64,000 nucleotides of DNA from Candidatus Moraniibacteriota bacterium (lineage in GTDB: Bacteria > Patescibacteriota > Minisyncoccia > Moranbacterales > GCA-2747515), in NCBI GenBank assembly GCA_040772365.1, contig JAXGYI010000002.1, forward strand, positions 2,762 to 66,761. Direction: 5' to 3'. A model generated the notes under the pieces. That model was not told the origin of the DNA. It worked only from the letters and a program-made list of their open reading frames with translations, and ran no database searches. Positions 5,410 through 24,142 of this stretch are shown in pieces (positions within the stretch are counted from its first letter, which is position 1; each line of letters opens with the position of its first letter). A program made the translations under genes and the position numbers.

Positions 5410-6948
<1,539 letters not shown>

Positions 6949-6950
6949 CT

Positions 6951-7076
6951 AGGGAGATAAGGTGACGAGAGTTGATGGTCAACATCAGGTTCTCAAAACC
7001 CATAAGGTCGTTTGCACATCTTTTAGTGTGCAATCGCGACTCAAGATAGACGTATAGGACTAACCGCAAAAGACAG
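6951..7076 (+). repeat. direct repeat copy 1 (about 126 bp) immediately 3' of 16S
   Basis: AGGGAGATAAGGTGACGAGAGTTGATGGTCAACATCAGG...AAAAGACAG; near-identical copy at 15604-15729 (2 mismatches). Confidence 0.9.
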
Positions 7077-7101
7077 AATATATCTTGTTAGAAACAAGAA
7101 A

Positions 7102-7125
7102 ATCGTTATTTGTAACGATTTTTTT
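7102..7125 (+). terminator. intrinsic terminator 1 downstream of 16S
   Basis: atcgtta-tttg-taacgat stem followed by TTTTTT. Confidence 0.6.
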
Positions 7126-7173
7126 GTTTTTGTGTGCTTCCATATTGTATTGGCTGGTACACATCATTTTGTC

Positions 7174-7197
7174 AACCGGCCATAAGCCGGTTTTTTT
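7174..7197 (+). terminator. intrinsic terminator 2 downstream of 16S
   Basis: aaccggc-cataa-gccggtt stem followed by TTTTTTT. Confidence 0.6.
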
Positions 7198-7419
7198 GAC
7201 TTGCGCACGTAGTGCTTGTGGTCTGTGTACAGCAATACACAATCACAAGCGCTGCGTGGGCTGGTTATATGTCCGGCTAATATATCACCGTCCAAGGCAT
7301 ATTGGGTGGACAAATAACCAGCTAAAAACGATAAATTGCTCATATTTGTAAGATTTGATATATTTATTATAAGAAACCTAAAATACTCTGCTATATAATA
7401 ATAACAAAAACTTTCAACT

Positions 7420-7635
7420 ATGAATGAAGGCAGATTTGAACAATTTGTTAGCCAGCCGGAATTGGAAGAAAAACTTAAAAAAGCTCCAAGGAAACAAAGA
7501 ATATTTTTGATGAGCTTGAGAGTGAAAAAAGAAATGAATCATTTATTAATGAAGATAAATCTAAAAATGAAAAAAGTGCAAACAAGAGAGACCTTAGAAA
7601 GAAAACTGCAGGTTTTATTGAAAAAGATGGTGTAA
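7420..7635 (+). CDS. small Lys/Glu-rich ORF, possibly the 5' part of a frameshifted gene
   Basis: ORF overlapped by a frame-3 ORF open from 7479; several A6 runs at the overlap. Confidence 0.25.
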   Translation: MNEGRFEQFVSQPELEEKLKKAPRKQRIFLMSLRVKKEMNHLLMKINLKMKKVQTRETLERKLQVLLKKMV

Positions 7636-8087
7636 TAATAAAAAAAGAAAAGAGGCATACAGGCAAAGGAATTGATTCAGTTCGCCATCCTAAAGGTGAA
7701 ATCTCGACAGCCAGTAAATATGAGCAATTGCAAAAAGAATTAGAAGATCATGGCATGAGTCATCCGGGTGAGTGGCGTAAAACCTATGATGAAGATTTTG
7801 AAAGTGCTATCCATAAAAATTTTGACGCATTATACACTTATCTTGAGGGTGAAAAAAGGGTCTCTGACAAAGAAAAAATAAAAGCATTTAGCGAGACTGA
7901 AGACAGCATAGAACGGCTGGAGCTTTTGAGGTCTATGTCGCTTACTGATGCGGTTAAATGCTTGCGAGATTATGCTGACAACCCGGGACAATTCCGCTAC
8001 CTGGCCAATCGTTTGGATTTTTATCAAAAGTTATTTCAAGGCAAAGCAACACGTTTTATTCTCAATTATCACGACAGAAGCAAATAG
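7479..8087 (+). pseudogene. hypothetical ORF with no canonical start (TTG at 7728 or frameshifted continuation of 7420 ORF)
   Basis: open frame from the stop at 7476-7478 to 8087 with no ATG before 7755; overlaps the SRAP-like remnant in another frame. Confidence 0.3.
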
Positions 8088-8289
8088 TCTTGTTGGAAAA
8101 ATTCATGATAGCATACCAGTTATTCTGAGAAAAGATGAGGAAAAACAATGGCTTGATACGCATATGAAAGATGATGAAATCATGCAATACTTGAACAAAT
8201 ATACAAGTGAAAATATGAACGTGTACGATATATCCACATTAGTAAACAGCCCACATAATGATATGTCCGATGTTTTGCTTCCTGCATAA
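8005..8289 (+). pseudogene. C-terminal remnant of an SRAP (YedK/HMCES-like SOS-response-associated peptidase) domain
   Basis: FSIITTEAN..GKIHDSIPVIL..WLD....STLVNSPHND matches the SRAP C-terminal consensus (tftIlTt.an..iHdRmPvil..WL..pVs..VNsp.nd); the N-terminal part with the Cys2 nucleophile is missing. Confidence 0.4.
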
Positions 8290-8394
8290 ATATAATTCTA
8301 CATGTACCATTTTTGTATGAGTCAGTTCTAATGGTTGACTAGAAATGAAATAATGTATACACTATAGTGATATTTTTATTGTTGTAATTTATAT

Positions 8395-9502
8395 ATGGTT
8401 CCAGATTATATTCTGCAAATAATAAAAAAAGATATAAAGAGCATGAAGGGTCGCAATGGTAATTTTGTTGTCCCAAATTATAAGCCAGAAACTCATTATT
8501 TGGACCTGACTAGCAGTAACTACTATTTTGCTCTTCTGTGTATCAGAAACCATATTAAGCTAATTTCAGACCACTATTTCAATACTATTATCGGCGCGAA
8601 GAATATTGACCTTTTTATGCTTACGCCAAGCATATCATCTCCAATGGGGCCTGGCTCAGATTCGGAAGCAATTCCAATAACATTTGGCAAACTCAGTTCA
8701 TATCTTGTTGACTCATCACAATTTGGTTTTGAGCCTTTGATTTTAAATGGGTTAGACAAAGTATATTGCTATCTTCCATCAATGAGGGGGGAGGATTATG
8801 ATAATCGTCATCTAAATCAATTCTATCACTGTGAAATGGAGATGGCGGGTACACGTGAAGAGATGAAGAAGATCATCGAAGGTTATATTAAAATTCTTTC
8901 TGAAACATTATTGGAGGCGAAGGAAATAGTTGCTCTGATATCAGTTAATCCTAAAGTATCAATTGCAGTTTTAGAAGAGTTGGTCAAACAAGGTAAATTT
9001 GCGGAATTCACTTTTGATGAAGCTGTTGAACTTTTAGAAAAGAATGGTAAAAAACATCTTGTAAATTATACGAATACAGGTAGGGATATTAGTTCGGATG
9101 GTGAAATTGAATTGATGAAGATTATAAATCATAGATTACCTATTTGGTTGAATGACTTTGATAGAGATAGGGTGCCATTTTATCAAAAACCACAAGCAGA
9201 CAAAGTTATTGCGTCCGATTTGTTATTTACCCCCATTGCAAGAAGGTGCTTTTGGTGGTGAGATAGTTGGCTGTGGTCAGCGGCAAGATACAGCTGATGA
9301 AATTTACGAATCTTTAAAAAGACAGGGCCTTAATGCTGAACCTTATGAATGGTATATTAATTTGCGAAGACAAGAAAACTATGACACATCATCAGGGTTT
9401 GGATTCGGCGTAGAGCGTTTTATTACATGGGCATTGGGCATGAATGATATTAAGAATGCCATTATTTATCCTAGATTAAAAAATATTGATACTAAGCCTT
9501 AA
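8395..9502 (+). pseudogene. class-II aaRS-like amino-acid ligase (AsnRS/AspRS-type catalytic core, no anticodon-binding domain), frameshifted
   Basis: motif-2-like RGEDYDNRHLNQFYHCEME, then DLLFTP | LQEGAFGGEIVGCGQR and motif 3 GFGFGVERFITWALG; the two halves are in frames 1 and 2 and are joined by removing one C from the C5 run at 9230-9234. Confidence 0.65.
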
Positions 9503-9507
9503 TTAAT

Positions 9508-10347
9508 ATGTTTATGAATTCGTTCAATATTGATGAATTGGATTATTCCAAATTAGTGTCCATAGTTAAAGAGCGTAATCGTCCGTCCGGTGGTATTAAA
9601 ACAGTACATGAGGTTGCAGTAAATGCATTTGTGGATTCTTCAAAAAAAATGCTTGAAATTGGAAGTAATACAGGCTTTACAAGTGTTAATATGAGTCTTT
9701 TGACGGGATGTGATGTTACGGGTATTGATATTAATCAAGGGTCTGTAGATGAATCCATCGCATATGCTAAACGCAATGGTGTGGAGAAAAATACAAAATT
9801 TCAAGTTGCATCTGCAACAGAAATACCATTTGATGACAAATATTTTGATATAGTGTGGAGCAGCAATGTTACCTCATTCATAGATGATAAAAGTGCGGCA
9901 ATCAGAGAGTATTTACGAGTTCTTAAAGTGGGAGGTATTTTAGTTGTGGTGCCAATATATTATCATAGTGAACCTCCTGCGGATGTGATACGCAGTGTAT
10001 CAAAAGCAATTGGTGCTGAAGTAAAAGTTTGGGATGAGAAATTTTGGATTGACCAAGTACAAAAAAGTGCACCACAAGATGAGAATTTTGTTCAACTCAT
10101 ATATAAGTCATCGTATCGATACGACGATAAAAGTGATAGTGTGAGCAGCTATGTGGATGAAATATTTAACAAAGAACATTTAATTGCATATTCTGATGAA
10201 GCAAAAATGATGCTAAAGAATCGATATGCAAAATATATGGACATTTTTAATACCAACTTGCAGTACGCACAGTATTCGGTGCTATTATTCCAAAAACGAA
10301 ATGAGGCAGAAGAAGTGGAGCTTTTTACAACAAAGAAAAATAATTAG
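9508..10347 (+). CDS. class I SAM-dependent methyltransferase
   Basis: motif I LEIGSNTGF, motif II FDIVWSSNV, motif III LKVGGILVV. Confidence 0.7.
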   Translation: MFMNSFNIDELDYSKLVSIVKERNRPSGGIKTVHEVAVNAFVDSSKKMLEIGSNTGFTSVNMSLLTGCDVTGIDINQGSVDESIAYAKRNGVEKNTKFQVASATEIPFDDKYFDIVWSSNVTSFIDDKSAAIREYLRVLKVGGILVVVPIYYHSEPPADVIRSVSKAIGAEVKVWDEKFWIDQVQKSAPQDENFVQLIYKSSYRYDDKSDSVSSYVDEIFNKEHLIAYSDEAKMMLKNRYAKYMDIFNTNLQYAQYSVLLFQKRNEAEEVELFTTKKNN

Positions 10348-10361
10348 TAAAAGCTCATGCT

Positions 10362-11378
10362 ATGAGTGAAATTTTAAAACCACCATGTTTAAAAAAAGGT
10401 GACACTATTGCAATTGTGAGCCCGTCTTCAACAATTCAGCCATTTCCTCGACGTACAAAGCGTTCTGTAGGTTATTTGGAGAGCAAAGGATATAAGGTTG
10501 TATTTATGCCAAATGCCAAAAAAAATGATGGTTATAGTGGTGGCACTGCTCAAGAGCGTGCAGATGATATTAATAAGGCATTCCTCGATAAAAAGATAGA
10601 TGCGATTCTGTGCTCAACCGGTGGTTTAACAGCCAATGCTATTCTTCCATATATAAATTATGATCTTATTCATAAAAATCCAAAGATTTTTTGTGGATAT
10701 TCTGACATCACAACTCTTCTTTTGATGATTACATCAAAAGCAAATATTGTTACATATCATGGACCAACGCTCTTGCCGAGTTTTGGAGAATATGAAGGGT
10801 CAATTGGATTTACTTTTGATAGCTTTGAAAAGATGCTTTCTTCTAAAAAGGCATGTGGCGTACTTCCAACTGCGCATGAAATCGTTGCAAATAATCAATA
10901 TTGGGACAAAGAAGATGTTGAGTCGCTTGAGATGAAAGAGGCTGAGGATATCAAGTCTTTTGGAAAATCACGAAAAATCAGTGGAAAAGTATTTGGTGGT
11001 AATTTACAAACATTTACAATGTTGATGCATGATAAGGGATTTTTTGACCTAGAGGACACCATACTTTTATTGGAAGAAGAAGGTCTATCAACTGATTGGT
11101 ACGAGCGATATATCACTGAGCTTGAAAGATTGGGTATCTTTGAAAAAATTAATGGTATTATTTTTGCAAAGCCAAGCAATAGCTACAAAGAACCAAATAA
11201 AAAAATAAGAAATCTCGACCATATTTTGCGTGAAATATCTGATAAATATGACTTGGGAATCTTGAGTAATGTTGATTGTGGCCACACAAAACCATTATTG
11301 ACGATTCCACTTGGCATTGACGCTGAAATTGATACAAAAGCAAGAACTTTATCAATAAAGGATGCAGCAGTCTGCTAA
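10362..11378 (+). CDS. S66 family LD-carboxypeptidase (LdcA/MccF-like)
   Basis: IAIVSPSS N-terminal strand, GYSDITTLL Ser-nucleophile motif, C-terminal CGHTKP His motif. Confidence 0.65.
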   Translation: MSEILKPPCLKKGDTIAIVSPSSTIQPFPRRTKRSVGYLESKGYKVVFMPNAKKNDGYSGGTAQERADDINKAFLDKKIDAILCSTGGLTANAILPYINYDLIHKNPKIFCGYSDITTLLLMITSKANIVTYHGPTLLPSFGEYEGSIGFTFDSFEKMLSSKKACGVLPTAHEIVANNQYWDKEDVESLEMKEAEDIKSFGKSRKISGKVFGGNLQTFTMLMHDKGFFDLEDTILLLEEEGLSTDWYERYITELERLGIFEKINGIIFAKPSNSYKEPNKKIRNLDHILREISDKYDLGILSNVDCGHTKPLLTIPLGIDAEIDTKARTLSIKDAAVC

Positions 11379-11395
11379 TTATTATCATTGATATT

Positions 11396-12643
11396 ATGCA
11401 AAAAACGGTCATAATAGTTGAACATGACACGCCAAAAGAATTTTTGTTAAAAAAAGCAAAGGAAAGAGGGTATCGTGTTGTGATGGTTGCAAATAGTCAG
11501 AATGAACTGTTTAATAAATATCTTCCCAATGAAGATGTTTTAATCACTGATGTTTTCAATTTGCACACAATTCTGGAAGATGTGCTATTTTTTGTGAAAA
11601 AAAATAACTTGCATATAGATGCGGTAGGAACATTTAGTGAAGAACTTGTTGTAGCAGCATCAGACATTGCGCAATCTTTGGGATGCAAAGGAATTGGACA
11701 ACTAGCAAGTAGAAGAACTTCAAGCAATAAACTGGCCATGAGAATGAGATTAGATGAAGTGGGAATTATGCAACCTGCATTCTCAGCGTTCAATATTTTT
11801 GAAGATAATGATGACATGCTGCGTAGTTTTCCAAAGCCCTGTGTTATAAAGCCGATTTTTGGCACTTCAAGTCATGGCGTTATTCTGATTGAAGAAAATG
11901 ATTTTGATTACAAAAAAATACAAGAAATAGTTAAAGCGACGGTGAATCGTAAATGTAGAGAAGCATTTCGAAGATTTCGCGGAAACATGCTTGTGGAAGA
12001 ATATATTCCTGGAGATATGATATCTGTTGATGGATTTGTTAATGATGGAAAGGTATCTATTATTGGCACCTTGGAATTTATAATGGGGAAAGAGCCATAT
12101 TTTACACAAACAGCGAGTTATATTCCGGCACGTTTATCAAAATCGCAAAATGGTAATATCCAAACATATGTTAATAATGTCATACATGCATTAGATTTTG
12201 ATTGCGCTCCATTTCATATGGAAATTCGAATAAAAAATGAAAAACCACATTTGGTGGAAATTGCCGGCAGAATGGCTGGAGCCACAATTCATGAAGCTTA
12301 TGATAAAGTTTATGGAATTGATATGATTGGCTTGATGTTTGACTGTTGGTTTGGAGAATTATCATTTCCAAAGTATCAACATAAGGGAATCAATTATCAT
12401 GAGTTATTTTATCCGAAAATTAATGATACTTGTATATTAAGCGAGGTAAAGGGCATCGACGATATAAGAAAAGAAAAAGATATATGGCATTTCAAAATGA
12501 TATCCGATAAAGGTGACACCTTAAAAACATATCCTAATTTGCCAACCCCACTATTTGAATATGCAATTTTTTCAAAGAATTTTGCTGAAATTGAAAGAAT
12601 TAAAGATATGATAAAAAAAATGATTACGTATGATATCCAATAA
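11396..12643 (+). CDS. ATP-grasp domain ligase
   Basis: CVIKPIFGTSSHGVILIEE and LVEEYIPGDMISVDGFV, typical ATP-grasp B/C-domain motifs. Confidence 0.6.
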   Translation: MQKTVIIVEHDTPKEFLLKKAKERGYRVVMVANSQNELFNKYLPNEDVLITDVFNLHTILEDVLFFVKKNNLHIDAVGTFSEELVVAASDIAQSLGCKGIGQLASRRTSSNKLAMRMRLDEVGIMQPAFSAFNIFEDNDDMLRSFPKPCVIKPIFGTSSHGVILIEENDFDYKKIQEIVKATVNRKCREAFRRFRGNMLVEEYIPGDMISVDGFVNDGKVSIIGTLEFIMGKEPYFTQTASYIPARLSKSQNGNIQTYVNNVIHALDFDCAPFHMEIRIKNEKPHLVEIAGRMAGATIHEAYDKVYGIDMIGLMFDCWFGELSFPKYQHKGINYHELFYPKINDTCILSEVKGIDDIRKEKDIWHFKMISDKGDTLKTYPNLPTPLFEYAIFSKNFAEIERIKDMIKKMITYDIQ

Positions 12644-12666
12644 GTTTTATAATTGAGAATACGGCA

Positions 12667-13135
12667 ATGAAAACTATTTATCTAGGATGTGATCACGCGG
12701 GATTTGATTTTAAAGAAAAGGTGAAGAACTATCTAATTAAGAAAAAATTTGATGTTGTAGATTTTGGCACATATACATACAATGAATATGACGATTACCC
12801 AGATTTTTTACATCCTGTAGCTCAGGCGCTTTCGCAAAATCCACAGGAGAGAGCAATAATTTTTGGAGGTTCTGGCATGGGGGAGTCGATATTGTTGAAC
12901 AAATATAACGGTATACGTTGTGGCGTATGGTATGGAGGTGATAAGTCAATAATTGCAAACTATAGAGGAACATGATGATATTAACGCTATAGCTATTGCA
13001 TCGCGCTATGTGAATGAGGATATATTGTATGATATTGTTGATGTTTTTTTAAGCACAGATTTTATTAAAGAGGAAAAATATATTCGTAGACTGAATAAGA
13101 TTGAAAATAAATTTAAAACCGAAAAGGGAGTGTGA
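12667..13135 (+). pseudogene. rpiB: ribose-5-phosphate isomerase B / sugar-phosphate isomerase (RpiB/LacAB family), frameshifted
   Basis: MKTIYLGCDHAGFDFKEKV...GGSGMGESILLNKYNGIR matches the RpiB N-terminus; the C-terminus NAIAIASRYVNEDILYDIVDVFLSTDFIKEEKYIRRLNKI matches in frame 2 after a single-base shift near 12950. Confidence 0.6.
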
Positions 13136-13152
13136 CCCTTTTCGGTTTTAAT

Positions 13153-14214
13153 CTAGATGGCATATAGTTTTGCGAACATCTCTGAGCCAAAACCGCTTGA
13201 ACAAAAAACCATCTTATGATTATTGAGTAGTCCTTTTATCCAATCCTTGGCGCCACCATCAATTAAAGAACATCTCTTACCATTCATATTTTCTGCGGAT
13301 ATTTTGAAACATAATCCGCTATGATAACCAAGACCAGCTGACCTTTCCAAATGATACTGGAAAAGAATATCTGGATAGCTATTGGCAAGTTCTTTAATCT
13401 TTGGGTCAAATAATTGGAATAGTCGAAGCTCGTCTGTGATGTCAATTACCTCGCTTGATGTTGAATCTATCTCATTCGGATTAATAGTTGCCGGAATATC
13501 AATGCCAAGACTTTTAAAAGTCGGTTTTTCATCCGTCCGAATTGACTTCGAAAATGCATTCCTATCGATGTTTAACCACTGGACAACCTTCTCCATGATG
13601 TGCGTATTGGATATTGAAACCTTGATGTTTTTCAGAAAATATTTTCCTGAAGAATTCAAAGCATTCAATATCATCAGCCATGAAAATATATGGCTTCCAA
13701 TCAAGTCTAAAATTATCTGGGAATCAGAGTTTTTTTGAGTACTTGATAGGGCAAATCCACGAAAGTGCTGTGTCAGGTTTGATTCAAGTGAAAATTTTTG
13801 CATCCTTACCATTCGACCACTTGTTGCAAAGCATAAGGGACTAACAGAATCAGTCCATTTTTTTGCAGATTCTAATGCGAGTAGTATTGTGATATCAGCA
13901 AGCACCTCAACATCTTTAATGGTTGATAGTACTGTTTTTTGGCTAATCTCACTGAGCGTGCTACTTGCACCAATTGGTGCAAGGGGTGAAAAATCAAGAA
14001 GCTCAAATTCATGAGGAAGAGCTTCTAGAATAACACTATCTACATTAAATAACGTACGTGCATTAGTTGAACATGGTCCCACAAAAGCATTTCTCTCGTA
14101 GTTTTGACGAATATCCGAATGTTTAAGGCTTTTGACCTTTTCAAAAACAATAGATAACAGGTAAGAATAAAACTTACTCCACCTCATTGTGATGATATCT
14201 TCTGATTTATTCAT
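13153..14214 (-). CDS. hypothetical protein; possible HisRS/HisZ-like class-II aaRS-fold paralog
   Basis: C-terminal LIDGGAKDWIKGL...CSSGFGSEMFAKL weakly resembles the HisRS motif-3 region (GGRYDgL...aVGFaiGlERL); otherwise no match. Confidence 0.3.
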   Translation of the reverse strand: MNKSEDIITMRWSKFYSYLLSIVFEKVKSLKHSDIRQNYERNAFVGPCSTNARTLFNVDSVILEALPHEFELLDFSPLAPIGASSTLSEISQKTVLSTIKDVEVLADITILLALESAKKWTDSVSPLCFATSGRMVRMQKFSLESNLTQHFRGFALSSTQKNSDSQIILDLIGSHIFSWLMILNALNSSGKYFLKNIKVSISNTHIMEKVVQWLNIDRNAFSKSIRTDEKPTFKSLGIDIPATINPNEIDSTSSEVIDITDELRLFQLFDPKIKELANSYPDILFQYHLERSAGLGYHSGLCFKISAENMNGKRCSLIDGGAKDWIKGLLNNHKMVFCSSGFGSEMFAKLYAI

Positions 14215-14382
14215 TTTTCACCTCCTCGGTTGTTAAGGTTCTTGACTGGTGATTCTATATCTTTACAGTACAATTGTCAATTTGATAATATTGACTGATG
14301 TGGTTATTTCTGCTAACCTGTTTTGAAGGCAAAAATAGTGATTTTGTACGTTAACATCATAAGATATTGGGAGGCTCATATT

Positions 14383-15234
14383 ATGAACGCCACAATTTTA
14401 TATGGACTTTTAGAGGCCGCATTTATTGCAAAAACAATGAGTGATAGTTGGGCTAAGTATATGAGCGAAGTTGGTGATTATTTGTGTGGAAATTTCATGC
14501 ATCGCTCAATGGGATTGGTTTGCGATAATGCTTCAGAAATCGAATATGTATACACAGCAGTATTTCCAGAAAAAAGTATTATGCAAGCGATATTAGATTC
14601 AGGACAAAAAAACGCATTGCTATTTGTGCATCACCCATCTGTTTGGAGTTATATAAACGCAAAGTTTACATATGTACAAATGGAAAGAAAGCTTTTGCAG
14701 GAATTCAAAAACAGGAATATATCAATATACTGTTTGCATGTTCCTCTGGATGCCTTCGGAAACTATTCTACGGGTGTAACGCTTGCAAATGCATTGGGTT
14801 TTGATATAGAAAGTTCGTTTGGTCAATATCGCGGGGCGGAGTGTGGAGTTATTGCAAAAACAAATCTCCATGATGTACATGACTTAACAAATGTTTTATC
14901 AAGAATTATTGGACATAGCGCAAAGCTGTATTCGTATGGCGGTTCTGACAATAAGAATGGTAGTGTTGCAATATTGCCGGGAGGTGGAAACGATATTGCC
15001 TTCATCAAAGAGGTTTACCAAATTGGTGTTAATACTGTCATTGTGGGAGTTTCTTCTTTGAACCAAGACACTTACACTGCGCATGAGTTCGAAAAAGATA
15101 AGGGGATTAATTTGATTGGGGGAACGCATTACTCAACGGAAAAATTTGCATGTGAAGCGATGTGTTCATTTTTTCACAATATTGGAATTCAATCAGTATT
15201 TATTCCTGGAAATCCGTTAATGTTAGACTTATAA
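14383..15234 (+). CDS. NIF3 (YbgI/YqfO) family dinuclear metal centre protein
   Basis: LLFVHHPSVW and IYCLHVPLDA motifs, GGTHYSTE near the C-terminus. Confidence 0.6.
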   Translation: MNATILYGLLEAAFIAKTMSDSWAKYMSEVGDYLCGNFMHRSMGLVCDNASEIEYVYTAVFPEKSIMQAILDSGQKNALLFVHHPSVWSYINAKFTYVQMERKLLQEFKNRNISIYCLHVPLDAFGNYSTGVTLANALGFDIESSFGQYRGAECGVIAKTNLHDVHDLTNVLSRIIGHSAKLYSYGGSDNKNGSVAILPGGGNDIAFIKEVYQIGVNTVIVGVSSLNQDTYTAHEFEKDKGINLIGGTHYSTEKFACEAMCSFFHNIGIQSVFIPGNPLMLDL

Positions 15235-15256
15235 GAAAGGAGGGTTAATACAAAAA

Positions 15257-15292
15257 GCCGCAATCAATTGATTTATGAATTGTGGCTTTTTT
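15257..15292 (+). terminator. intrinsic terminator after NIF3-like gene
   Basis: gccgcaat / attgtggc 8-bp stem (one G:U) followed by TTTTTT. Confidence 0.6.
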
Positions 15293-15353
15293 AATTAGAA
15301 TGTGATATTATATTGGTGGTCAAACATCAATTTACACGAAGGAGGATACAACG

Positions 15354-15506
15354 ATGACAATTGACATGTTAGACCGACAAGAGCTCGACGATGTAAAACT
15401 GGCTCGTATGCACCTTGAAGCGTATAATGCCATGATGGAAGCAAGACGAAATTATGAACCATTTGCAGGAATTTGGAACCGCATTCGCCGCATTTTTTGC
15501 AAATGA
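15354..15506 (+). CDS. small ORF (50 aa) with strong SD
   Basis: GAAGGAGG 7 nt upstream of ATG; MTIDMLDRQELDDVKLARMHLEAYNAMMEARRNYEPFAGIWNRIRRIFCK. Confidence 0.3.
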   Translation: MTIDMLDRQELDDVKLARMHLEAYNAMMEARRNYEPFAGIWNRIRRIFCK

Positions 15507-15603
15507 TGAATAAAATCGCCTATCTCACAAAAATACTCTTATACCGCGTATGGGAGTATAATCTTTAAAAAATTAATATTATCTCACGAATCACCTCATT
15601 TTT

Positions 15604-15729
15604 AGGGAGATTAGGTGACGAGAGTTGATGGTCAACATCAGGTTCTCAAAACCCATAAGGTCGTTTGCACATCTTTTAGTGTGCAATCGCGACTCAAGAT
15701 AGACGTATAGGACTAACCGTAAAAGACAG
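15604..15729 (+). repeat. direct repeat copy 2, preceded by a degenerate 16S 3'-end-like sequence (aatcacctcattttt)
   Basis: 124/126 identity with 6951-7076; upstream aatcacctcattttt resembles 16S terminal ggatcacctcctttct. Confidence 0.9.
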
Positions 15730-15825
15730 TGAACAAAAATACATAACAAAGAGCACGGGCTTTTTGTTGTTTATTTTTGTTCGTTAGAAAATTTAAAAAA
15801 ATATCCACATACGAAGGAGGGGTGG

Positions 15826-16200
15826 ATGGATATTTATGGAAAACTTGAGAATGTGCGAAACACCCAAGAGGTTTCGCATTGGCACTTGACGTTCACAAAG
15901 AAGGTGCCAAAGGGTGTTCTCACCATTGGCAACCGATGGGTGGTGACGCTTAACCACCATAGTGGAGAAGCGCTTTTTGATCGGAACGGTTTCCAAGTCC
16001 GATTTGGATCCAAACCAATCGGACAGCCAGCAGAAGAGGAAGCTGCACTACTAAAAGTGTTTTATCAGCTTCTACACCTATTTAGTATCGGGATTGATGC
16101 TGCTCCAGTTGAATTGGAGTATATGGTGGATGAGGATATTGGCAAATTTCTCCTCAACCGCTCGATCACGGCTTCTCTGGAGCCACTGAGGTTGTCATAA
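15826..16200 (+). CDS. hypothetical protein encoded inside the 16S-tRNA-Ile spacer
   Basis: AGGAGG 5 nt upstream of ATG; 124-aa ORF with host-like GC; no recognisable domain. Confidence 0.45.
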   Translation: MDIYGKLENVRNTQEVSHWHLTFTKKVPKGVLTIGNRWVVTLNHHSGEALFDRNGFQVRFGSKPIGQPAEEEAALLKVFYQLLHLFSIGIDAAPVELEYMVDEDIGKFLLNRSITASLEPLRLS

Positions 16201-16276
16201 TTTTTCCTCCCGAGGTATAGCTATTTTTTTTGGACAGTGGCTGCCCAGTACTTCAGGAGGAATTTTGTTGTAGAGA

Positions 16277-16352
16277 GTGCACGTAACTCAATTGGGAGAG
16301 TGCCTGTATGATAAGCAGGTGGTTGCGGGTTCGAATCCCGTCGTGCGCTCCA
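16277..16352 (+). tRNA. tRNA-Ile (anticodon GAT)
   Basis: 76 nt; acceptor gtgcacg/cgtgcgc, U8, D-stem actc/gagt, anticodon loop atGATaa, T-loop ttcgaat, CCA encoded. Confidence 0.85.
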
Positions 16353-16407
16353 ATATGCAGCGTAATACCATGTGTGCTGCATAAGCAATACTGCTTATAG
16401 ATTATAG

Positions 16408-16438
16408 AACCGGTTCGTTAATAACGTGCCGGTTTTTT
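16408..16438 (+). terminator. intrinsic terminator after tRNA-Ile
   Basis: aaccgg...ccggtt stem followed by TTTTTT. Confidence 0.55.
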
Positions 16439-16551
16439 CTATAGGTGAATGGTTGTATGATACTAGGAGAGATCTAATGTACGCGACATCATACTATATA
16501 AAAACATAGTAATGCTATGGAAGGTTTATCACGAGACTTTTGTAAACTCAG

Positions 16552-17629
16552 TGTGCAATAAAGTGATAGAGGGTGATTATTGTTAACATTGCAGCAAAAC
16601 AGGTAACACTTTTATTAATAAAGGTGTATGCTAAAACGTTATTTTTAGCATAAAACCTCATGAATACCTACGATCCGCGATATATGCAATTACAACAGGA
16701 AAAATTGGAAATGATCATAGTAAAGCGACAGAGCGTCAGATCTGTCGCCAAAGAGCTTTCCGTATCACGAAAAACCATTTACCAGTGGTTGGTACGATAC
16801 AAAACATATGGATTGGACGGATTAAGAAAACAAAAGAGAAAGAAGTATCCCATAGCCCATAACAGAACAAAACAGCATATTGAAAAGACCGTAATCTTTG
16901 TTGCAAGGCAATTCCACACCGAAGGTGTGGAATCTCTTTCAGATATCCTTTATGCGGAATATGGCATTACGCTGCACTCCACGACAATTTACAGGATTCT
17001 TAAAAGAAACAATATCAGATACGGACCATATCATGCCCATACACACAAAAGATGGAAAAAGAAGCTGTATGCACATAGAATACCGGGATCGGAGCTCCAA
17101 ATGGATACGATGTATCCATTTGGATACAAAGCAGGGAAGGTTGTTTACACGATTATTGATGATGCAAGTAGATGGTCATATGTCAAAACATATGATAGAG
17201 CAAATGGTACAAATACTGTCGATTTTTTAACCAACGTCATCAAAAGATCATATTGTGACATTTATAAAATTCGTACAGATCATGGAACAGAATTTATCAA
17301 TGCAAAAACACAAGATTTTCTTAAAAACAACAATATTGTCCATAGAAGAAATACTGTAGGATGTCCAGAGCAAAATGGGAAAATCGAACGATTCCATCAA
17401 ACGCTCAAGAGAGCTTTCAGGTACCATATTCCGTATGACAGTTCTATTGATTCCATGCAATACAAGCTTATCTTGTTCATGCAGTATTACAATTATACAA
17501 AAAGACATCGGGGACTTGGCATGCATGGGCTAACGCCCATGCAAAAGCTGAATGAATTAAGAAGTGTTACCTTGACGCTGCAATGTCACAATTATTGACA
17601 ATACCCATAATATGTGATATAATTGCACA
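16552..17629 (+). mobile_element. IS481-family insertion sequence (about 1.08 kb), apparently intact
   Basis: terminal inverted repeats TGTGCAAT... at 16552 and ...ATTGCACA at 17629; single HTH+rve transposase ORF. Confidence 0.6.
16660..17598 (+). CDS. IS481-family DDE transposase (HTH + rve integrase core)
   Basis: N-terminal HTH (SVRSVAKELSVSRKTIYQW); DDE core TIIDDASRW...RTDHGTEF...NGKIERFH. Confidence 0.8.
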   Translation: MNTYDPRYMQLQQEKLEMIIVKRQSVRSVAKELSVSRKTIYQWLVRYKTYGLDGLRKQKRKKYPIAHNRTKQHIEKTVIFVARQFHTEGVESLSDILYAEYGITLHSTTIYRILKRNNIRYGPYHAHTHKRWKKKLYAHRIPGSELQMDTMYPFGYKAGKVVYTIIDDASRWSYVKTYDRANGTNTVDFLTNVIKRSYCDIYKIRTDHGTEFINAKTQDFLKNNNIVHRRNTVGCPEQNGKIERFHQTLKRAFRYHIPYDSSIDSMQYKLILFMQYYNYTKRHRGLGMHGLTPMQKLNELRSVTLTLQCHNY

Positions 17630-17666
17630 TTAACGTAGTATCTCGTATGATTTTTAGCGATATTGT

Positions 17667-18686
17667 ATGAATAAGCGTATTATTGCTACAATTTTGATTT
17701 TTGTCCTGACGTTTGGTCTGATCTATGGCATGCTCTCCGGGGGCATGGCGGTGTTTTCACGTCGTTCGGTGGCATATGATACGGAATCGGAAAAGACAAC
17801 TAAGGATTTTGGTATTCCCAAGGCGTGGCAAGAGAGGTATGGTGTGAGTGTGTTGTCGGAGGTGGATCTCTTGCGCGATGACGACAATGACGGGTTGACG
17901 CTGAAAGAGGAATACATTCACAATACGGATCCCAATAATCCTGACACGGATGGTGACGGCTATAATGACGGGCGCGAAGTTGCTAATGGATACAATCCCG
18001 CAGGCGATGGCATTTTGGATGAGAATAAAAACGGCATTCCCGATAAATACGAAAAAGATGCCGCCGGCAATATCATTGCAGACACGGATGAGGATGTGGA
18101 TGGCGACGGTTTAAGCGCGCATGAGGAATACTTGTTTGGCACGGATCCCAATAATCCTGACACGGATGGTGACGGCTATAATGACGGGCGCGAAGTTGCT
18201 AATGGCTATGACCCTACGGTGCCGGGTGACGCGCGTATTGCCGTGACGATTGAGATTGCCAAAATTGATGTGAAGGTGCCAGTGGTGCTTGCCAAGAGCG
18301 ATGATGAGAAAACACTGGAAAGCGATCTGAATTTTGGCGTGATCCACTATCCTGGCACACCGCTGCCCGGACAGCGCGGCAACGCCTACATTGCTGGACA
18401 CAGCAGTAACTACTCGTGGTCCAAAGGTAAATACAACTATGTGTTTAAGCGATTGAATGAAGTGCAGGAGGGTGATGTGATCACCGTACGCTTCCTCCTT
18501 CACAATCGCAAAGAGATTATCTATAGCTATCTTGTGCAGACCAATGTGGAGACGGCACCGGATGATCCCCGCATCTTTGAGCAAGGGTATTCCAAGGAGT
18601 TAACGCTGACAACATGTTGGCCGCTCGGTTCCGATGCACGTCGCTTGATGGTGAAGGCAGTCTTGCAAAATGACGACACGAACTAA
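17667..18686 (+). CDS. sortase (transpeptidase) with N-terminal TM and thrombospondin-type-3-like Ca-binding repeats
   Basis: repeats [22 protein letters not shown] x2; catalytic YIAGHSS (His), LTLTTCWP (Cys), downstream ARRLMV (Arg). Confidence 0.7.
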
Positions 18687-18723
18687 TATGTGGAGTGTAT
18701 GTGACACGGAGCGCGTGACGGGT

Positions 18724-19671
18724 TGTACAGTTAACAGTCAATGGTAACACTCTCTAGATACTTCTCATGAGGAGTCTTTCCATGTAATGATAAATGAATC
18801 CTTTCAAAATTGTAGTATTCCAACCATTTGTACGGATCCTTCCAAATATTGCCCATATTCTGGTAGTACTCTTCATCCATAGTACGATGTACTCTTTCTA
18901 CTTTCCCATTCCACCATGGAGACTTTTTAGGAATAAAGTAGTGAGGAATATCAATTTTGGTAAGCCATCTGTGGAATTCTCCTCGAAATTCACTTCCATT
19001 ATCAGTCTGTACAGATAGGATTTTAAACTTAAAATATCTTTCAGCATGTCGAAAAGCTGTAATAGCATTCGTACTTTCTTTTGTAGAAAATACAGTAAAA
19101 TGATACTTTTCCGTATAGGGATCAAAGACACTAAACTGGTAGTCTTTTTCCTAATCCTCCATAGACATACTTTACATCCATTTGTACGCCTATCCTCGGC
19201 TTATCTATCACCAATCTTTCTTTGAGTGGTGCGTACCATGGTAGCTTTCTCTGTGGCTTCCTGATAAGCATTCTTCTCTTGTAGTAGCGATAGATAATGG
19301 TAGTGGAGATATCTATACCCAATTCTCTCAAAACAAGCATTTTCATCTTCAAAGGTCCATAGTTTGTTTTCTTTTTTCTTTCTCAATAAAATTTCGAACT
19401 TCCCATGTCAACTTTGTATTTCTCCGTATACAAGAGTAAGTAGTGTTACCAGTTAGACCAAAATCTCTTTTCCTCCAAAGATAATAGGTTTTTCTTGATA
19501 TATTAAATATCTGGCATGTCTCTTTCACTGACTTATGATACCTATCCACTGACTGATACCAGAGAATACGCTTTTCTTTTTGATAACTTGGCTTTGGTCC
19601 AGGCATAGTGTTTTAGTTAACAGTGTTACCTTTTAGCATACCAAGTGTTACCGGATAGTGTTAACTGTACA
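18724..19671 (-). mobile_element. IS3-family-like IS remnant with about 27-bp terminal inverted repeats
   Basis: TGTACAGTTAACAGTCAATGGTAACACT at the left end and its imperfect inverse at 19644-19671; A6G slippery heptamer (GAAAAAAG) between the OrfA-like and OrfB-like parts. Confidence 0.55.
18790..19606 (-). pseudogene. IS3-like transposase OrfAB, disrupted (multiple frames)
   Basis: OrfA HTH (19349-19606); rve core W..MDVKYVYG / VQTDNGSEF / WNGKVERVHR split over at least 3 frames by a stop (KRLPV*) inside the catalytic domain. Confidence 0.6.
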
Positions 19672-19713
19672 CGGGTTTTCTCGTTCGCGCTTTTTGTGGT
19701 ACACTTGGCGTAT

Positions 19714-21126
19714 ATGATGTTCCATAAGGTTGTATGTGGTGTGTGTGCTGTGGTACTGACAATGGGCTTGTTGAGTCCTGTTTTTGTGACTGCCAAGAAT
19801 ACATGCACCGTTGCAAAAGATGGCGATGCGGAGTATAAAAGTATCGCAAAAGCACTGGAAAAAGAGTGTACGGATATTCGTGTGCGTGAAGGGGTGTACC
19901 ATGACGCCATCACAATTGATAAAGATGTGACGGTGCGTGGGGATGACAAGAAGAAAGTGACGATTATTGGTGATGTTACAATGAAAAGCGGTGCACAGCT
20001 TCGCAACGTTACCGTCAAGGCTGCACGCGGTGTTACGGCGGTGGAGGGTGCTACTGTTACCATTACGGACACGGTGATTGTCGGTGCAAAAATTGGCATA
20101 CGTGCAGCGGGTGGTGGCAAAGTTACGCTTGACGATGTTACGGTGCGCGATGGCGGCAAGGGGATGTATATGCAATTCGGCACTAAAGTCGCCATTAAAA
20201 ACTGCAGGGTGGAAGATAACGCAGAGGAGGGTATTGATCTGCGTGCCAATACCGATGGCAGTATTACGGGTTGCACAATTGTCGGCAATGGTGAGAGTGG
20301 TATTGAAGTCATTCTGGGGCGATCCAACCTGACCATTAGTGGCAATACCATCAAAAAGAACAAATCAAGTGGTATTGCTACGCAATTCTATCCGGAGGCA
20401 AAAAAGGAAGGTGATGTACGTATCACCAAAAACACCATTACCGGCAACAGTCACTATGCCATCAACTGCAAAAAACCAAGCGGTGGCAAGTCGCATGCGG
20501 GCTACTGGGATAATTCGCTGACGATGACTGGTAATACAATGTCCGGTAATAAGCACGGTGATTTTTCGGATGCGTGCAAGCTTGCTGATCAGACAATGGA
20601 GCATGCCACAATGACAAGGGCGGAAATCGCTGAGGCACAAGCGCGCCTGGAGGAAGAGCAGCGCAAGAAGGAGGAGGCGATTGCGGCGGCAAAGACGGAG
20701 CGACAGAAGGCGGCGGAGCAAAAAGCACAAGAGGAGCAGGCGCGCCAAGAAGAAGAGCGGCGTCGCAAGGAACAGGAAGAGCATGATGCGCGCACAGTGG
20801 TGGATGCAGAGGCGCGCTTGGGGGAAATTGTCGCGTTACAAGAGATGGCGCGCACTTTGCAAGAGCGCATGACCTCACGCCCGGCATGGAAAGTCTTTTT
20901 TGTGGGTGTGGATAAAGTAGCCTCTGGACAAATTGCAGAAAGTGTGCTACAACAAAGACAGAACGTTCAAGAAGTGCATGCGCTTATCGCTACGATCGGC
21001 GACATAGCACAACACGATGATCTTGCAGCCCGTGCAGATGACGTTGCACATGTTGCAGACGAACTTGAAGATTTTCTCGTCCAACAGCAAGAACGCTTTA
21101 GTCTCTTTGGGTGGATGAGGAAGTAA
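19714..21126 (+). CDS. secreted right-handed beta-helix repeat protein with C-terminal charged coiled-coil
   Basis: signal peptide MMFHKVVCGVCAVVLTMGLLSPVFVTA; repeated G/N/T-rich beta-helix turns (CTIVGNGESGIEV, NTITGNSHYAINC); E/K/R/Q/A-rich segment about 320-400. Confidence 0.5.
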   Translation: MMFHKVVCGVCAVVLTMGLLSPVFVTAKNTCTVAKDGDAEYKSIAKALEKECTDIRVREGVYHDAITIDKDVTVRGDDKKKVTIIGDVTMKSGAQLRNVTVKAARGVTAVEGATVTITDTVIVGAKIGIRAAGGGKVTLDDVTVRDGGKGMYMQFGTKVAIKNCRVEDNAEEGIDLRANTDGSITGCTIVGNGESGIEVILGRSNLTISGNTIKKNKSSGIATQFYPEAKKEGDVRITKNTITGNSHYAINCKKPSGGKSHAGYWDNSLTMTGNTMSGNKHGDFSDACKLADQTMEHATMTRAEIAEAQARLEEEQRKKEEAIAAAKTERQKAAEQKAQEEQARQEEERRRKEQEEHDARTVVDAEARLGEIVALQEMARTLQERMTSRPAWKVFFVGVDKVASGQIAESVLQQRQNVQEVHALIATIGDIAQHDDLAARADDVAHVADELEDFLVQQQERFSLFGWMRK

Positions 21127-21661: not shown

Positions 21662-24142
21662 ATGGAACGCTACGATCATCAAAGCATTGAAGAAAAGTGG
21701 CGAAAAAAGTGGACTGTCGCTAACGCATATAAAACAACGGAGGATCCAGACAAGAAGAAATTTTATATTTTGGACATGTTTCCATATCCGTCGGGGGTGG
21801 GATTACATGTGGGACATCCCAAAGGCTACATTGCTACAGATGTTATGTCGCGGATGAAAAAAATGCAAGGCTATAATGTGTTGCATCCGATGGGATGGGA
21901 TGCGTTTGGACTTCCAGCGGAGCAGTATGCACTCAAAAATCATGTGCATCCGCGTGTCGCAGTAGAAAATAACATTGCCACATTCAAAAAGCAATTAGAA
22001 AAAATTTCTCTCAACTACGATTGGGAGCGCGAGTTTTCCACAACGGATCCGGCATACTATAAGTGGACGCAGTGGGCTTTTGTACAGATGTTTAAAAAGG
22101 GCTTAGTGTTTCGCTCCGATGAGCCAATCAATTGGTGTCCGTCGTGCAAAACGGGGCTTGCCAATGAGGATTTGGAAGATGGCGCGTGCGAGCGCTGTAA
22201 TACGCCGATTGAGAAGAAGAAATTACCGCAGTGGGTGATTAAGATTACCGACTATGCGGATCGTTTGCTTGCGGATTTGGATAAGCTAGAGTGGCAGGAG
22301 AGCATCAAGCAGTCGCAACGCAATTGGATCGGACGCAGCGAGGGTGCGGAAATTACATTTCGCGTGGTATGTGATTCCGAACTCGTGTCGGAATCTCACG
22401 CGAACAATAAAGAGGTTTTGAAACAAGCTCGGGGTGAAGAAAGTGAAGAATTGCATGACGCAACGATTACCGTATTCACCACGCGTCCTGACACGCTTTT
22501 TGGCGCGACATATATGGTTCTTGCACCGGAACACCCGCTTGTTGAGAAAATCAAAAACGCCATTGCAAATATTGCGGACGTGGAGCGGTATCAAAAAGAA
22601 GCGCAGAAAAAGACGGAGATTGAGCGCACAGCGGAAGGGAGGGAAAAAACAGGCGTACAATTAAAGGGTGTCAGGGCAGTTAATCCGGCAAGTGGCGCAG
22701 AAATTCCCATCTACATCGCCGACTATGTGCTTGCTGACTATGGTACGGGCGCCATCATGGCGGTGCCGGCGCACGATGAGCGCGACTTTACGTTTGCAAA
22801 AAAATACAACATTGACCTTGTGGAAGTTATCGCTAGTCGTACGAATCACGTCATCCCATATGTTGGTTCCGGCACACTGATTAACTCTGGCGCATTTGAC
22901 GGCATGGACAATGAGAAGGCAAAAAGGGCGATCACAGAAAGCGTTGGCGGCACAATGACAGTGAGCTATAAACTGCGCGACTGGGTATTTAGCCGACAGC
23001 GCTATTGGGGTGAGCCGATTCCCCTTATTGAATGTGTAACGTGCGGATGGGTGCCCGTACCGGAGGAGGAATTACCATTGACGCTACCCGACGTAGAAAG
23101 TTATGAACCTACGGGAACGGGCGAGTCGCCTCTGGCGGCGATTGAAGATTGGGTGAATACGGCGTGCCCGATATGCTGTGGTGAGGCGCGGCGTGAAACC
23201 AACACGATGCCACAGTGGGCAGGATCAAGCTGGTATCACCTGCGATATATTGACCCAAAAAATGACACAGAAATTGTGGACAAGAAAAAAGAGAAGTACT
23301 GGTCACCGGTAGATTTCTATGTCGGTGGTGCAGAGCATGCGACACGACACCTGATCTACGCACGCTTTTGGCACAAGTTTTTATATGACATTGGTGCAGT
23401 TTCCTCTGACGAGCCATATAAAAAATTACAAACGGTGGGTCTCATTATGGCGGAGGATGGACGCAAGATGTCCAAGCGATGGGGTAATGTGATCAATCCT
23501 GATACAGTGATTGCGCGCTTTGGATCAGACACATTTCGGTTGTATGAGATGTTTATGGGACCTTTTGACGCGACGGTGGCGTGGAGTACGGAGAGTATGA
23601 CGGGGCCACGCAAGTTTATTGAGCGGCTATGGAAATTTGGACAAAACAGGATTGCAGAGGGGTTTGCTCAGGAGAGTAGCGTGCATATCGCCAGAGAATT
23701 GCACAGGACGATTAAGAAGGTCGGTGAGGATATCGATGCCATGAAATACAATACGGCGATTGCGCAGATGATGACGCTCATGAATGTTATGGAGAAAAAC
23801 AAAACAATGTCCGAGCAGGATTTTGGTGATCTGTTGAAAATTCTTTCGCCGTTTTGCCCGCATGTGACGCAAGAATTGTGGGCACAGATGGGCAATGCGA
23901 CATTGCTTGTGCACACGTCGTGGCCGACATATGATCCAGCTCTGCTTATTGACGACAGCATTACCATTGCCGTCCAAGTCAATGGCAAAGTACGCGATCA
24001 AATTACCATTCCTGCCGATAGCACAGACGCCGATGTAGAGGTCGTCGCACTTGCAAGTGAAAAAGTGCAAAAATACGTGGAATGCAAGACGCCAAAGAAG
24101 GTGATTTATGTGAAAGGAAAATTGGTGAGCGTGGTAGTGTAA
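21662..24142 (+). CDS. leuS: leucyl-tRNA synthetase
   Basis: HVGHPKGY (HIGH), KMSKRWGN (KMSKS), editing domain, 826 aa. Confidence 0.95.
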   Translation: MERYDHQSIEEKWRKKWTVANAYKTTEDPDKKKFYILDMFPYPSGVGLHVGHPKGYIATDVMSRMKKMQGYNVLHPMGWDAFGLPAEQYALKNHVHPRVAVENNIATFKKQLEKISLNYDWEREFSTTDPAYYKWTQWAFVQMFKKGLVFRSDEPINWCPSCKTGLANEDLEDGACERCNTPIEKKKLPQWVIKITDYADRLLADLDKLEWQESIKQSQRNWIGRSEGAEITFRVVCDSELVSESHANNKEVLKQARGEESEELHDATITVFTTRPDTLFGATYMVLAPEHPLVEKIKNAIANIADVERYQKEAQKKTEIERTAEGREKTGVQLKGVRAVNPASGAEIPIYIADYVLADYGTGAIMAVPAHDERDFTFAKKYNIDLVEVIASRTNHVIPYVGSGTLINSGAFDGMDNEKAKRAITESVGGTMTVSYKLRDWVFSRQRYWGEPIPLIECVTCGWVPVPEEELPLTLPDVESYEPTGTGESPLAAIEDWVNTACPICCGEARRETNTMPQWAGSSWYHLRYIDPKNDTEIVDKKKEKYWSPVDFYVGGAEHATRHLIYARFWHKFLYDIGAVSSDEPYKKLQTVGLIMAEDGRKMSKRWGNVINPDTVIARFGSDTFRLYEMFMGPFDATVAWSTESMTGPRKFIERLWKFGQNRIAEGFAQESSVHIARELHRTIKKVGEDIDAMKYNTAIAQMMTLMNVMEKNKTMSEQDFGDLLKILSPFCPHVTQELWAQMGNATLLVHTSWPTYDPALLIDDSITIAVQVNGKVRDQITIPADSTDADVEVVALASEKVQKYVECKTPKKVIYVKGKLVSVVV

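Follow-up and report, generated by a model that had tools for sequence, protein, structure and literature searches.

A sortase gene flanked by two insertion sequence (IS) elements is present in the 64,000-nt window analysed here, a stretch of contig JAXGYI010000002.1 from a Candidatus Moraniibacteriota bacterium. The elements, called IS1 and IS2 as local labels, lie between a tRNA-Ile gene and a beta-helix (NosD/Beta_helix) gene, which is followed by a leucyl-tRNA synthetase (LeuRS) gene. IS1, upstream of the sortase gene, carries an intact open reading frame (ORF) for a 312-aa DDE transposase with HTH and rve domains. IS2 begins 37 nt past the sortase gene, is oriented in the opposite direction and ends in imperfect inverted repeats of 28 nt (82% identity; 18724–18751 and 19644–19671, from an inverted-repeat search). 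A first-pass annotation of this DNA had recognised the transposase, the sortase gene and the downstream element with its imperfect terminal repeats, and had likened the block to a composite transposon, leaving two possibilities, invasion around a resident gene or mobilisation of that gene. The analysis described below supports the former: the locus very probably results from two independent insertions of IS481-family elements into intergenic DNA on either side of a resident sortase gene in a Moranbacteria-like (Patescibacteria) genome.

The boundaries of IS1 were determined by comparison with L003, a 2172-bp JGI metagenome contig encoding the closest homologue of the window sortase (P0001, 94% amino acid identity). 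L003 contains a 124-aa ORF, tRNA-Ile, the sortase gene and the start of the beta-helix gene, in the same order as the window, and neither IS element. BLASTN aligned L003 with the window in two collinear blocks (1–860 with 15682–16582 and 854–1922 with 17591–18659), between which the window has a 1015-nt insertion. The sequence ATTATTG, single in L003, is present twice in the window (16576–16582 and 17591–17597), and the L003 breakpoints yield single-copy targets for both elements, ATTAT(TG) for IS1 and CGGGT for IS2. The ends of IS1 had been placed at 16552 (TGTGCAAT) and 17629 (ATTGCACA). However, since L003 contains these termini as TGTGCACT ... ATTGCACA, they are host DNA, as are the whole segments 16552–16580 and 17591–17629 in the alignment with this contig; the element is thus shorter than proposed, and its distance from the sortase start is 76 nt instead of 38 nt.

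The inverted repeats of IS1 are TGTTAACATTGCAGC on the left (16581–16595) and GCTGCAATGTCACA on the right (17577–17590). Four other copies of this lineage (L008, L009, L010 and L038) set the ends at TGTTAACATTGCAGC ... GCTGCAATGTNACA, with the right end reading GCTGCAATGT(N)ACA and with similarity to the window ceasing exactly at these ends; around the copy in L038, a 5-bp sequence (ACTTT) is perfectly duplicated. Because the target always goes on with TG, the junctions could also be read as a duplication of 7 bp, ATTATTG, the element then starting at 16583 (TTAACA). This is not our primary reading, as the TGT...ACA ends pair better as an inverted repeat and suit the family. The IS1 junctions are reproduced by two Logan contigs from different runs (L001 and L002) and by one NCBI assembly (L006). 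L001 and L002 encode the exact IS1 transposase between the same flanks and match the window at 99.96–100% identity across the left flank and IS1 as far as nt 288 of the sortase gene. No second copy of IS1 was found within the window, and the element is probably present as a single copy, since both Logan assemblies run unbroken from the flank through IS1 into the sortase gene.

The IS1 transposase contains the Pfam domains HTH_28, HTH_32, rve and rve_3, with the DDE residues D149, D207 and E243 read from its sequence, and its relatives are likewise 312 aa long. Its best NCBIfam model is IS481 (NF033577; 203.4 bits, E = 5e-60, covering model positions 10–283 of 284), the IS3 model scoring 91 bits. 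The ORF has no stop codon inside the element: its last 8 nt lie in the duplicated target and the adjoining -35 box, and the stop is the TGA of a host TTGACA.

IS2 was connected with the same family by tblastn, in which the IS1 transposase as query matched IS2 on its minus strand, with 26% identity across 149 aa (E = 4e-8). Three-frame translation of IS2 revealed three open segments that jointly make up a 291-aa HTH+DDE protein, and this reconstructed transposase matched IS481 NF033577 best (150 bits), with 97.4 bits for the IS3 model NF033516 (cut-off 160). One of its 703 homologues (P0160) led to an intact IS2 copy at an unrelated locus (L007, 2879–3829, 951 bp, 98.7% identical), which has the same exact TGTACA...TGTACA termini, a duplication of its own (GATCC) and one unbroken 292-aa ORF. 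Relative to this copy, IS2 of the window has A6 for A7 (T6 on the plus strand, 19372–19377) and, at the 19140/19141 junction, a deletion of 2 nt. The element had been described as a remnant with a disrupted catalytic domain. Its frame is indeed broken by the two deletions, but the DDE residues are still encoded, and IS2 appears to be decayed only slightly. Coordinates of the features are given in Table 1.

Table 1. Features at and around the sortase locus (positions in the window; L003 is the IS-free relative)
Feature	Position	Strand	Evidence or remark
16S rRNA gene	5411–6948		
tRNA-Ile (GAU)	16277–16352	+	ARAGORN, Rfam; resident upstream neighbour of sortase
Host intergenic DNA misread as IS1 left end (TGTGCAAT...)	16552–16580		Aligns with L003 831–858, without IS
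Left IS1 target-site duplication, ATTAT	16576–16580		
IS1, intact IS481-family element, ~1010 bp	16581–17590	+	L003 empty site; ends of L008/L009/L010/L038; subterminal inverted repeat I7
IS1 transposase ORF, 312 aa	16660–17598	+	
Right IS1 target-site duplication, ATTAT	17591–17595		L003 has ATTATTG once
Sortase promoter, TTGACA-17 nt-TATAAT, TG before -10	17595–17623	+	Identical in L003
Sortase ORF, 339 aa	17667–18686	+	
Left half of predicted sortase intrinsic terminator hairpin	18708–18723	+	
Left IS2 target-site duplication, CGGGT	18719–18723		
IS2, IS481-family pseudogene element, 948 bp	18724–19671	-	Inverted repeat I1; tblastn; three-frame translation; L007 copy
Broken-up minus-strand ORFs (IS2)	18731–19606	-	
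Right IS2 target-site duplication, CGGGT	19672–19676		Followed by right terminator half and T-run to 19695
Beta-helix (NosD/Beta_helix) gene	19714–21126	+	Pfam; start region aligned with L003
Leucyl-tRNA synthetase (LeuRS) gene	21662–24142		

The sortase protein consists of an N-terminal transmembrane segment, three TSP3_bac repeats (PF18884) and a sortase domain (PF04203, 80.8 bits, residues 195–333), which contains the catalytic His (YIAGHS) and the TLxTC cysteine motif, here TLTTC (LTLTTCWP in the translation). Models for sortase classes D, E, C and F all score far under their cut-offs. Homologues number 1721 (E ≤ 1e-10), the named ones being labelled Moranbacteria, Moraniibacteriota or Patescibacteria, and an exact look-up of the window protein returned no record. 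A NosD/Beta_helix gene also follows the sortase gene in two Moranbacteria-type contigs, L004 and L005 (1.18 Mb and 55 kb; sortases with 59% and 58% amino acid identity), in one of which LeuRS is found two genes later, as in the window. Upstream of their sortase genes these contigs have a PLD-type gene and no tRNA-Ile; adjacency to tRNA-Ile thus seems specific to the close lineage of the window, yet it occurs without any IS. The sortase gene had been contrasted as GC-rich with AT-rich IS elements. The G+C contents of IS1 and IS2 are indeed low (36.6% and 35.7%), but that of the sortase gene (49.4%) is close to the genome background (about 47%), i.e. the gene is native in composition and the two IS elements are the outliers. 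Judged from its composition and from these relatives, the sortase gene is a resident one, very probably inherited vertically.

Both insertions lie in the intergenic DNA that contains the expression signals of this gene. The sortase promoter, the sole 12/12 consensus match in the region, is intact directly 3' of IS1 and ends 43 nt before the sortase ATG; IS1 inserted just upstream of its -35 box, duplicating ATTAT, with the promoter surviving downstream. On the other side, removal of IS2 and one CGGGT restores GGAGCGCGUGACGGGUUUUCUCGUUCGCGCUUUUU, a sequence that is predicted to be an intrinsic terminator, as it has a strong fold (-30.4 kcal/mol, z = -4.6) with a U-run behind it. IS2 is situated at the apex of this hairpin. 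At the same place L003 has an equivalent hairpin of different sequence (-26.5 kcal/mol, z = -5.3). IS2 accordingly entered the apex, duplicating CGGGT, and afterwards lost its function through the 1-nt and 2-nt deletions; neither element moves the sortase gene. Transcription from IS1 may read through into the sortase gene, and sortase transcripts may pass the split terminator and enter IS2 as antisense. Beyond IS2, the extended -10 element of the beta-helix gene (TGGTACACT) and its start codon, ATG 19714, are undisturbed; the GTG start at 19645 given by the ORF tool falls within IS2. This ATG is just 8 nt past the extended -10 in the window (19696–19716), and in L003 (about 1995–2015) it is 6 nt past TGGTATAAT, a spacing which suggests that the beta-helix mRNA is leaderless.

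To what extent the position of IS1 reflects target choice was examined by scanning public genomes and metagenomes with a conserved 20-mer of the IS1 right end, supplemented by look-ups. Eleven independent right junctions were obtained (the window, L008, L009/L010, L011, L012, L013, L015, L016, L017, L018 and L038); L009 and L010, which have a common right flank but different left flanks and no duplication, were treated as chimeras or recombinants and counted as one. A match in L014 (Pseudomonadota) was rejected as a chance occurrence of the 20-mer and not an IS. All 11 junctions consist of the ...ACA end, 5 variable nt ending in T, and TGAC, and therefore all abut a TTGAC(A/C/T/G) hexamer; at any given position of the window, TTGAC has a frequency of 0.0011. 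A TAnnnT hexamer is found exactly 17 nt past the TTGAC hexamer in 9 of the 10 close copies, versus 8% of the TTGAC sites in the window (binomial ~1e-9), and in most copies whose downstream sequence is long enough, a co-oriented ORF follows. The transposase stop of the 312-aa copies is the TGA of the host hexamer. At least at the window site this hexamer is host DNA, since it is present in the empty site of L003. The target motif resembles the right end of IS1 itself (TG-TGACA-TTGCAGC), which makes it plausible, by analogy, that the target is chosen through the inverted-repeat-binding specificity of the transposase. The junction in L038 has a poor -10 and is followed by a gene on the opposite strand, so that the DNA motif is a likelier determinant than promoter activity; selection may in addition favour survivors in promoter-proximal intergenic DNA.

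On the basis of these 11 junctions we lean slightly towards the view that the IS1 lineage, an IS481 group common in Patescibacteria metagenomes, is targeted by sequence to NNNNT|TGAC, abutting the -35 hexamer TTGACA. In the literature searched there was no description of -35/TTGACA targeting by IS481 and nothing specific on IS elements of Patescibacteria, and this apparent targeting of the -35 box is the only novel element of the present analysis. If it is true, the lineage parks harmlessly just upstream of host promoters and leaves them intact, while close 312-aa copies borrow their stop codon from the TGA of TTGACA. Such a parasite would avoid hitting genes in the small, gene-dense genomes of the candidate phyla radiation, and in uncultured organisms its copies would naturally mark the active promoters.

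Two further sets of contexts were inspected. Those of P0269, a relative with 64% identity to IS1 (L019–L028), have the left end TGTTAACATTGCAGC at several distinct left flanks, whereas the right side is always one and the same long sequence, with a 336-aa HTH_38 gene; the right junction is therefore uninformative, and P0269 may belong to an element that is larger, either composite or fused. The contexts of P0143, from the IS2 family, are nearly all one locus upstream of uvrA and give no information on the target preference of IS2.

A possibility compatible with two independent insertions is that they were kept because they rewire sortase expression, the IS1 transposase transcript lying upstream of and co-oriented with the sortase promoter, and IS2 splitting the terminator and thereby decoupling or extending the transcript. 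IS1 does abut the -35 box without destroying the promoter, the hairpin split by IS2 is a strong one, and the configuration recurs, IS1 in two Logan samples and both elements in one NCBI assembly. Nevertheless, we consider such retention unlikely: adjacency to TTGAC seems intrinsic to the IS1 family, so that selection at the sortase locus is unneeded, IS2 is decaying, and a relative free of both elements exists.

Far less probable is a composite transposon, in which IS1 and IS2 would be arms that move the sortase gene with them as a unit, or did so in the past. The arrangement superficially resembles one, as two elements of one broad family, in inverted orientation and close to the gene on both sides, enclose a cargo relative to which both are AT-rich. 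However, when the target-site duplications proposed as a check were looked for, each element proved to have its own perfect 5-bp repeat (the chance per match at fixed boundaries being about 1/1024), and the block as a whole is bounded by unlike sequences, ATTAT on one side and CGGGT on the other. The transposases have the low identity noted above, the inverted repeats (TGTTAACATTGCAGC versus TGTACAGTTAACA) have only TGT in common, and the transposase of IS2 is frameshifted. L003 has the sortase gene at the same place without either IS, and the synteny of the sortase and beta-helix genes is old. Mobilisation is thus refuted by the displaced boundaries of IS1, the separate duplications and the IS-free relative with its sortase gene, observations that the first-pass annotation had itself named as decisive.

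The proposal that IS2 is an IS3-family element, with OrfA and OrfB joined by programmed -1 frameshifting at an A6G motif, deserves almost no credence: the 85-aa HTH ORF and the overlapping -1-frame ORF at the GAAAAAAG run do give this appearance, and the IS3 model is a secondary match, but the nearly identical copy in L007 has A7 and one ORF, more than 100 relatives are single ORFs (289–295 aa, with 98–100% coverage, among the matches listed), the catalytic C-terminus is accessible only if the separate 2-nt deletion is bridged too, the codons at the run are GAA AAA AGA in the incoming frame and thus out of the A_AAA_AAG phase, and the IS481 model outscores that of IS3. IS2 is also well short of the length of IS3-family elements, which are typically 1.2–1.5 kb. 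The OrfA/OrfB layout with its slippery site is an artefact of decay, because two deletions have hit a single ORF of the IS481 type.

The assembly L006 (GCA_040769235.1, JAXGLK010000002.1) represents essentially the same organism as the window (99.3% identity), contains both IS elements and shows both IS2 junctions. Over 6.3 kb there are 41 aligned positions at which it departs from the window, about 30 of them indels and mostly in homopolymer runs. These differences break up the genes for LeuRS, the beta-helix protein, sortase and the IS1 transposase in L006, which is probably an unpolished long-read assembly. Sequencing error as the source of the IS2 frameshifts is unlikely, since the other genes of the region are intact in the window, the noisy L006 is identical to the window at both indel sites, and one of the lesions, the 2-nt deletion, does not lie in a homopolymer run.

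Three points weigh against two IS481-family insertions as described here. 1) Both transposases score under the NCBIfam curated cut-off for IS481 (224 bits), so membership leans on best-hit ranking, architecture, termini and duplication length. 2) L003 and the window are only about 75–78% identical in the intergenic DNA around the IS2 site, which makes the empty site of IS2 less sharp than that of IS1; its main supports are the exact repetition of CGGGT and the identical termini of the L007 copy. 3) The window and L006 are possibly from the same sample, so that their agreement at the IS2 frameshifts may not be fully independent.

The identity between L003 and the window shifts sharply about 30–45 nt inside the sortase gene. 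On the upstream side, which starts at 15682 and takes in the promoter, tRNA-Ile and the 124-aa ORF, identity is about 99–100%, bar one 33-nt indel, whereas downstream it is about 85% in the rest of the sortase gene and about 78% at the beta-helix start. The shift may mark a breakpoint near the sortase start that was left by recent recombination or transfer between two Moranbacteria populations. The sortase gene also contains a 68-nt direct repeat (99%; 17925–17992 and 18141–18208) coding for two TSP3 calcium-binding-type repeats, at which both L001 and L002 break. L003 has both copies as well, near-identical to each other and unlike those of the window, a pattern that indicates concerted evolution or gene conversion of this repeat.

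The rRNA genes of this region are separated: no 23S, 5S or tRNA-Ala gene was found across the whole 64 kb. Since L003, too, goes directly from tRNA-Ile to sortase, the separation of 16S and 23S is older than both IS insertions. The intact duplications also argue against a deletion or inversion mediated by either IS copy, and the insertions are therefore not the cause of the separation. Between the 16S gene and tRNA-Ile lies an 8.5-kb island (7077–15589, 35% G+C) bounded by a 140-bp direct repeat (97%; 6937–7076 and 15590–15729), made up of the final 12 nt of the 16S gene together with the spacer behind it; L003 begins exactly within this repeat. The island encodes a split SRAP peptidase, a split class II aminoacyl-tRNA synthetase-like protein, a methyltransferase, an LD-carboxypeptidase, an ATP-grasp enzyme, a 353-aa protein and NIF3, and no integrase was found in it. 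The SRAP and synthetase-like genes (7728–8289 and 8395–9502) are each split into overlapping ORFs, probably as pseudogenes of an island that was acquired and is now decaying. The island looks as if a foreign DNA circle that bore a copy of the spacer had been integrated by a single crossover (Campbell-type).

As a biological finding the locus is ordinary, with textbook simple IS insertions in intergenic DNA and little at stake. What has changed is the annotation, in which the ends of IS1, the family of IS2 and the false slippery site are now corrected. Two lessons can be drawn: i) what looks like IS termini can be a host promoter and an 8-bp inverted repeat of host DNA, and ii) two indels can imitate the OrfA/OrfB layout of IS3.

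Elements of the IS481 family, which was at first classed within IS3, have TG...CA ends and duplications of 2–15 bp, mostly 6 bp, while the IS3 subgroups have duplications of 3–5 bp (PMC10045372). Judged from their sequences, IS1 and IS2 would be new, divergent members of the known IS481 family. Like other members, both have a single HTH+rve DDE ORF (for IS2, in the intact L007 copy), TGT...ACA ends, a length of about 1 kb, short imperfect inverted repeats and 5-bp duplications within the range of 2–15 bp. They differ in scoring under the curated cut-off, in the duplication of 5 bp in place of the majority 6 bp and in their hosts, which here are Patescibacteria; in addition, the IS1 lineage has no internal stop codon and stands beside TTGAC in every copy examined. 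With the IS3 family the two elements share a related rve catalytic core and TG...CA ends, and the broken IS2 mimics OrfA/OrfB at its A-run. In contrast, intact IS2 copies of about 950 bp have a single ORF with no frameshift, and the IS3 model scores lower than that of IS481.

Composite transposons such as Tn5, Tn10 and Tn9 have two copies of one IS around their cargo. The sortase gene likewise lies between two IS in inverted orientation, but these are distinct elements with distinct repeats and their own duplications, one transposase is dead, and the supposed cargo is found at the same site in an IS-free relative. As to target choice, IS30 and IS911 insert next to sequences resembling their own inverted repeats. 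A preprint reports insertion of the related IS1202 subgroup beside XerCD sites (bioRxiv 10.1101/2022.12.17.520857). The IS1 lineage resembles these elements in being found strictly beside a short motif, NNNNT|TGAC, that is similar to its own right end, and differs from them in that this motif coincides with the sigma-70 -35 hexamer.

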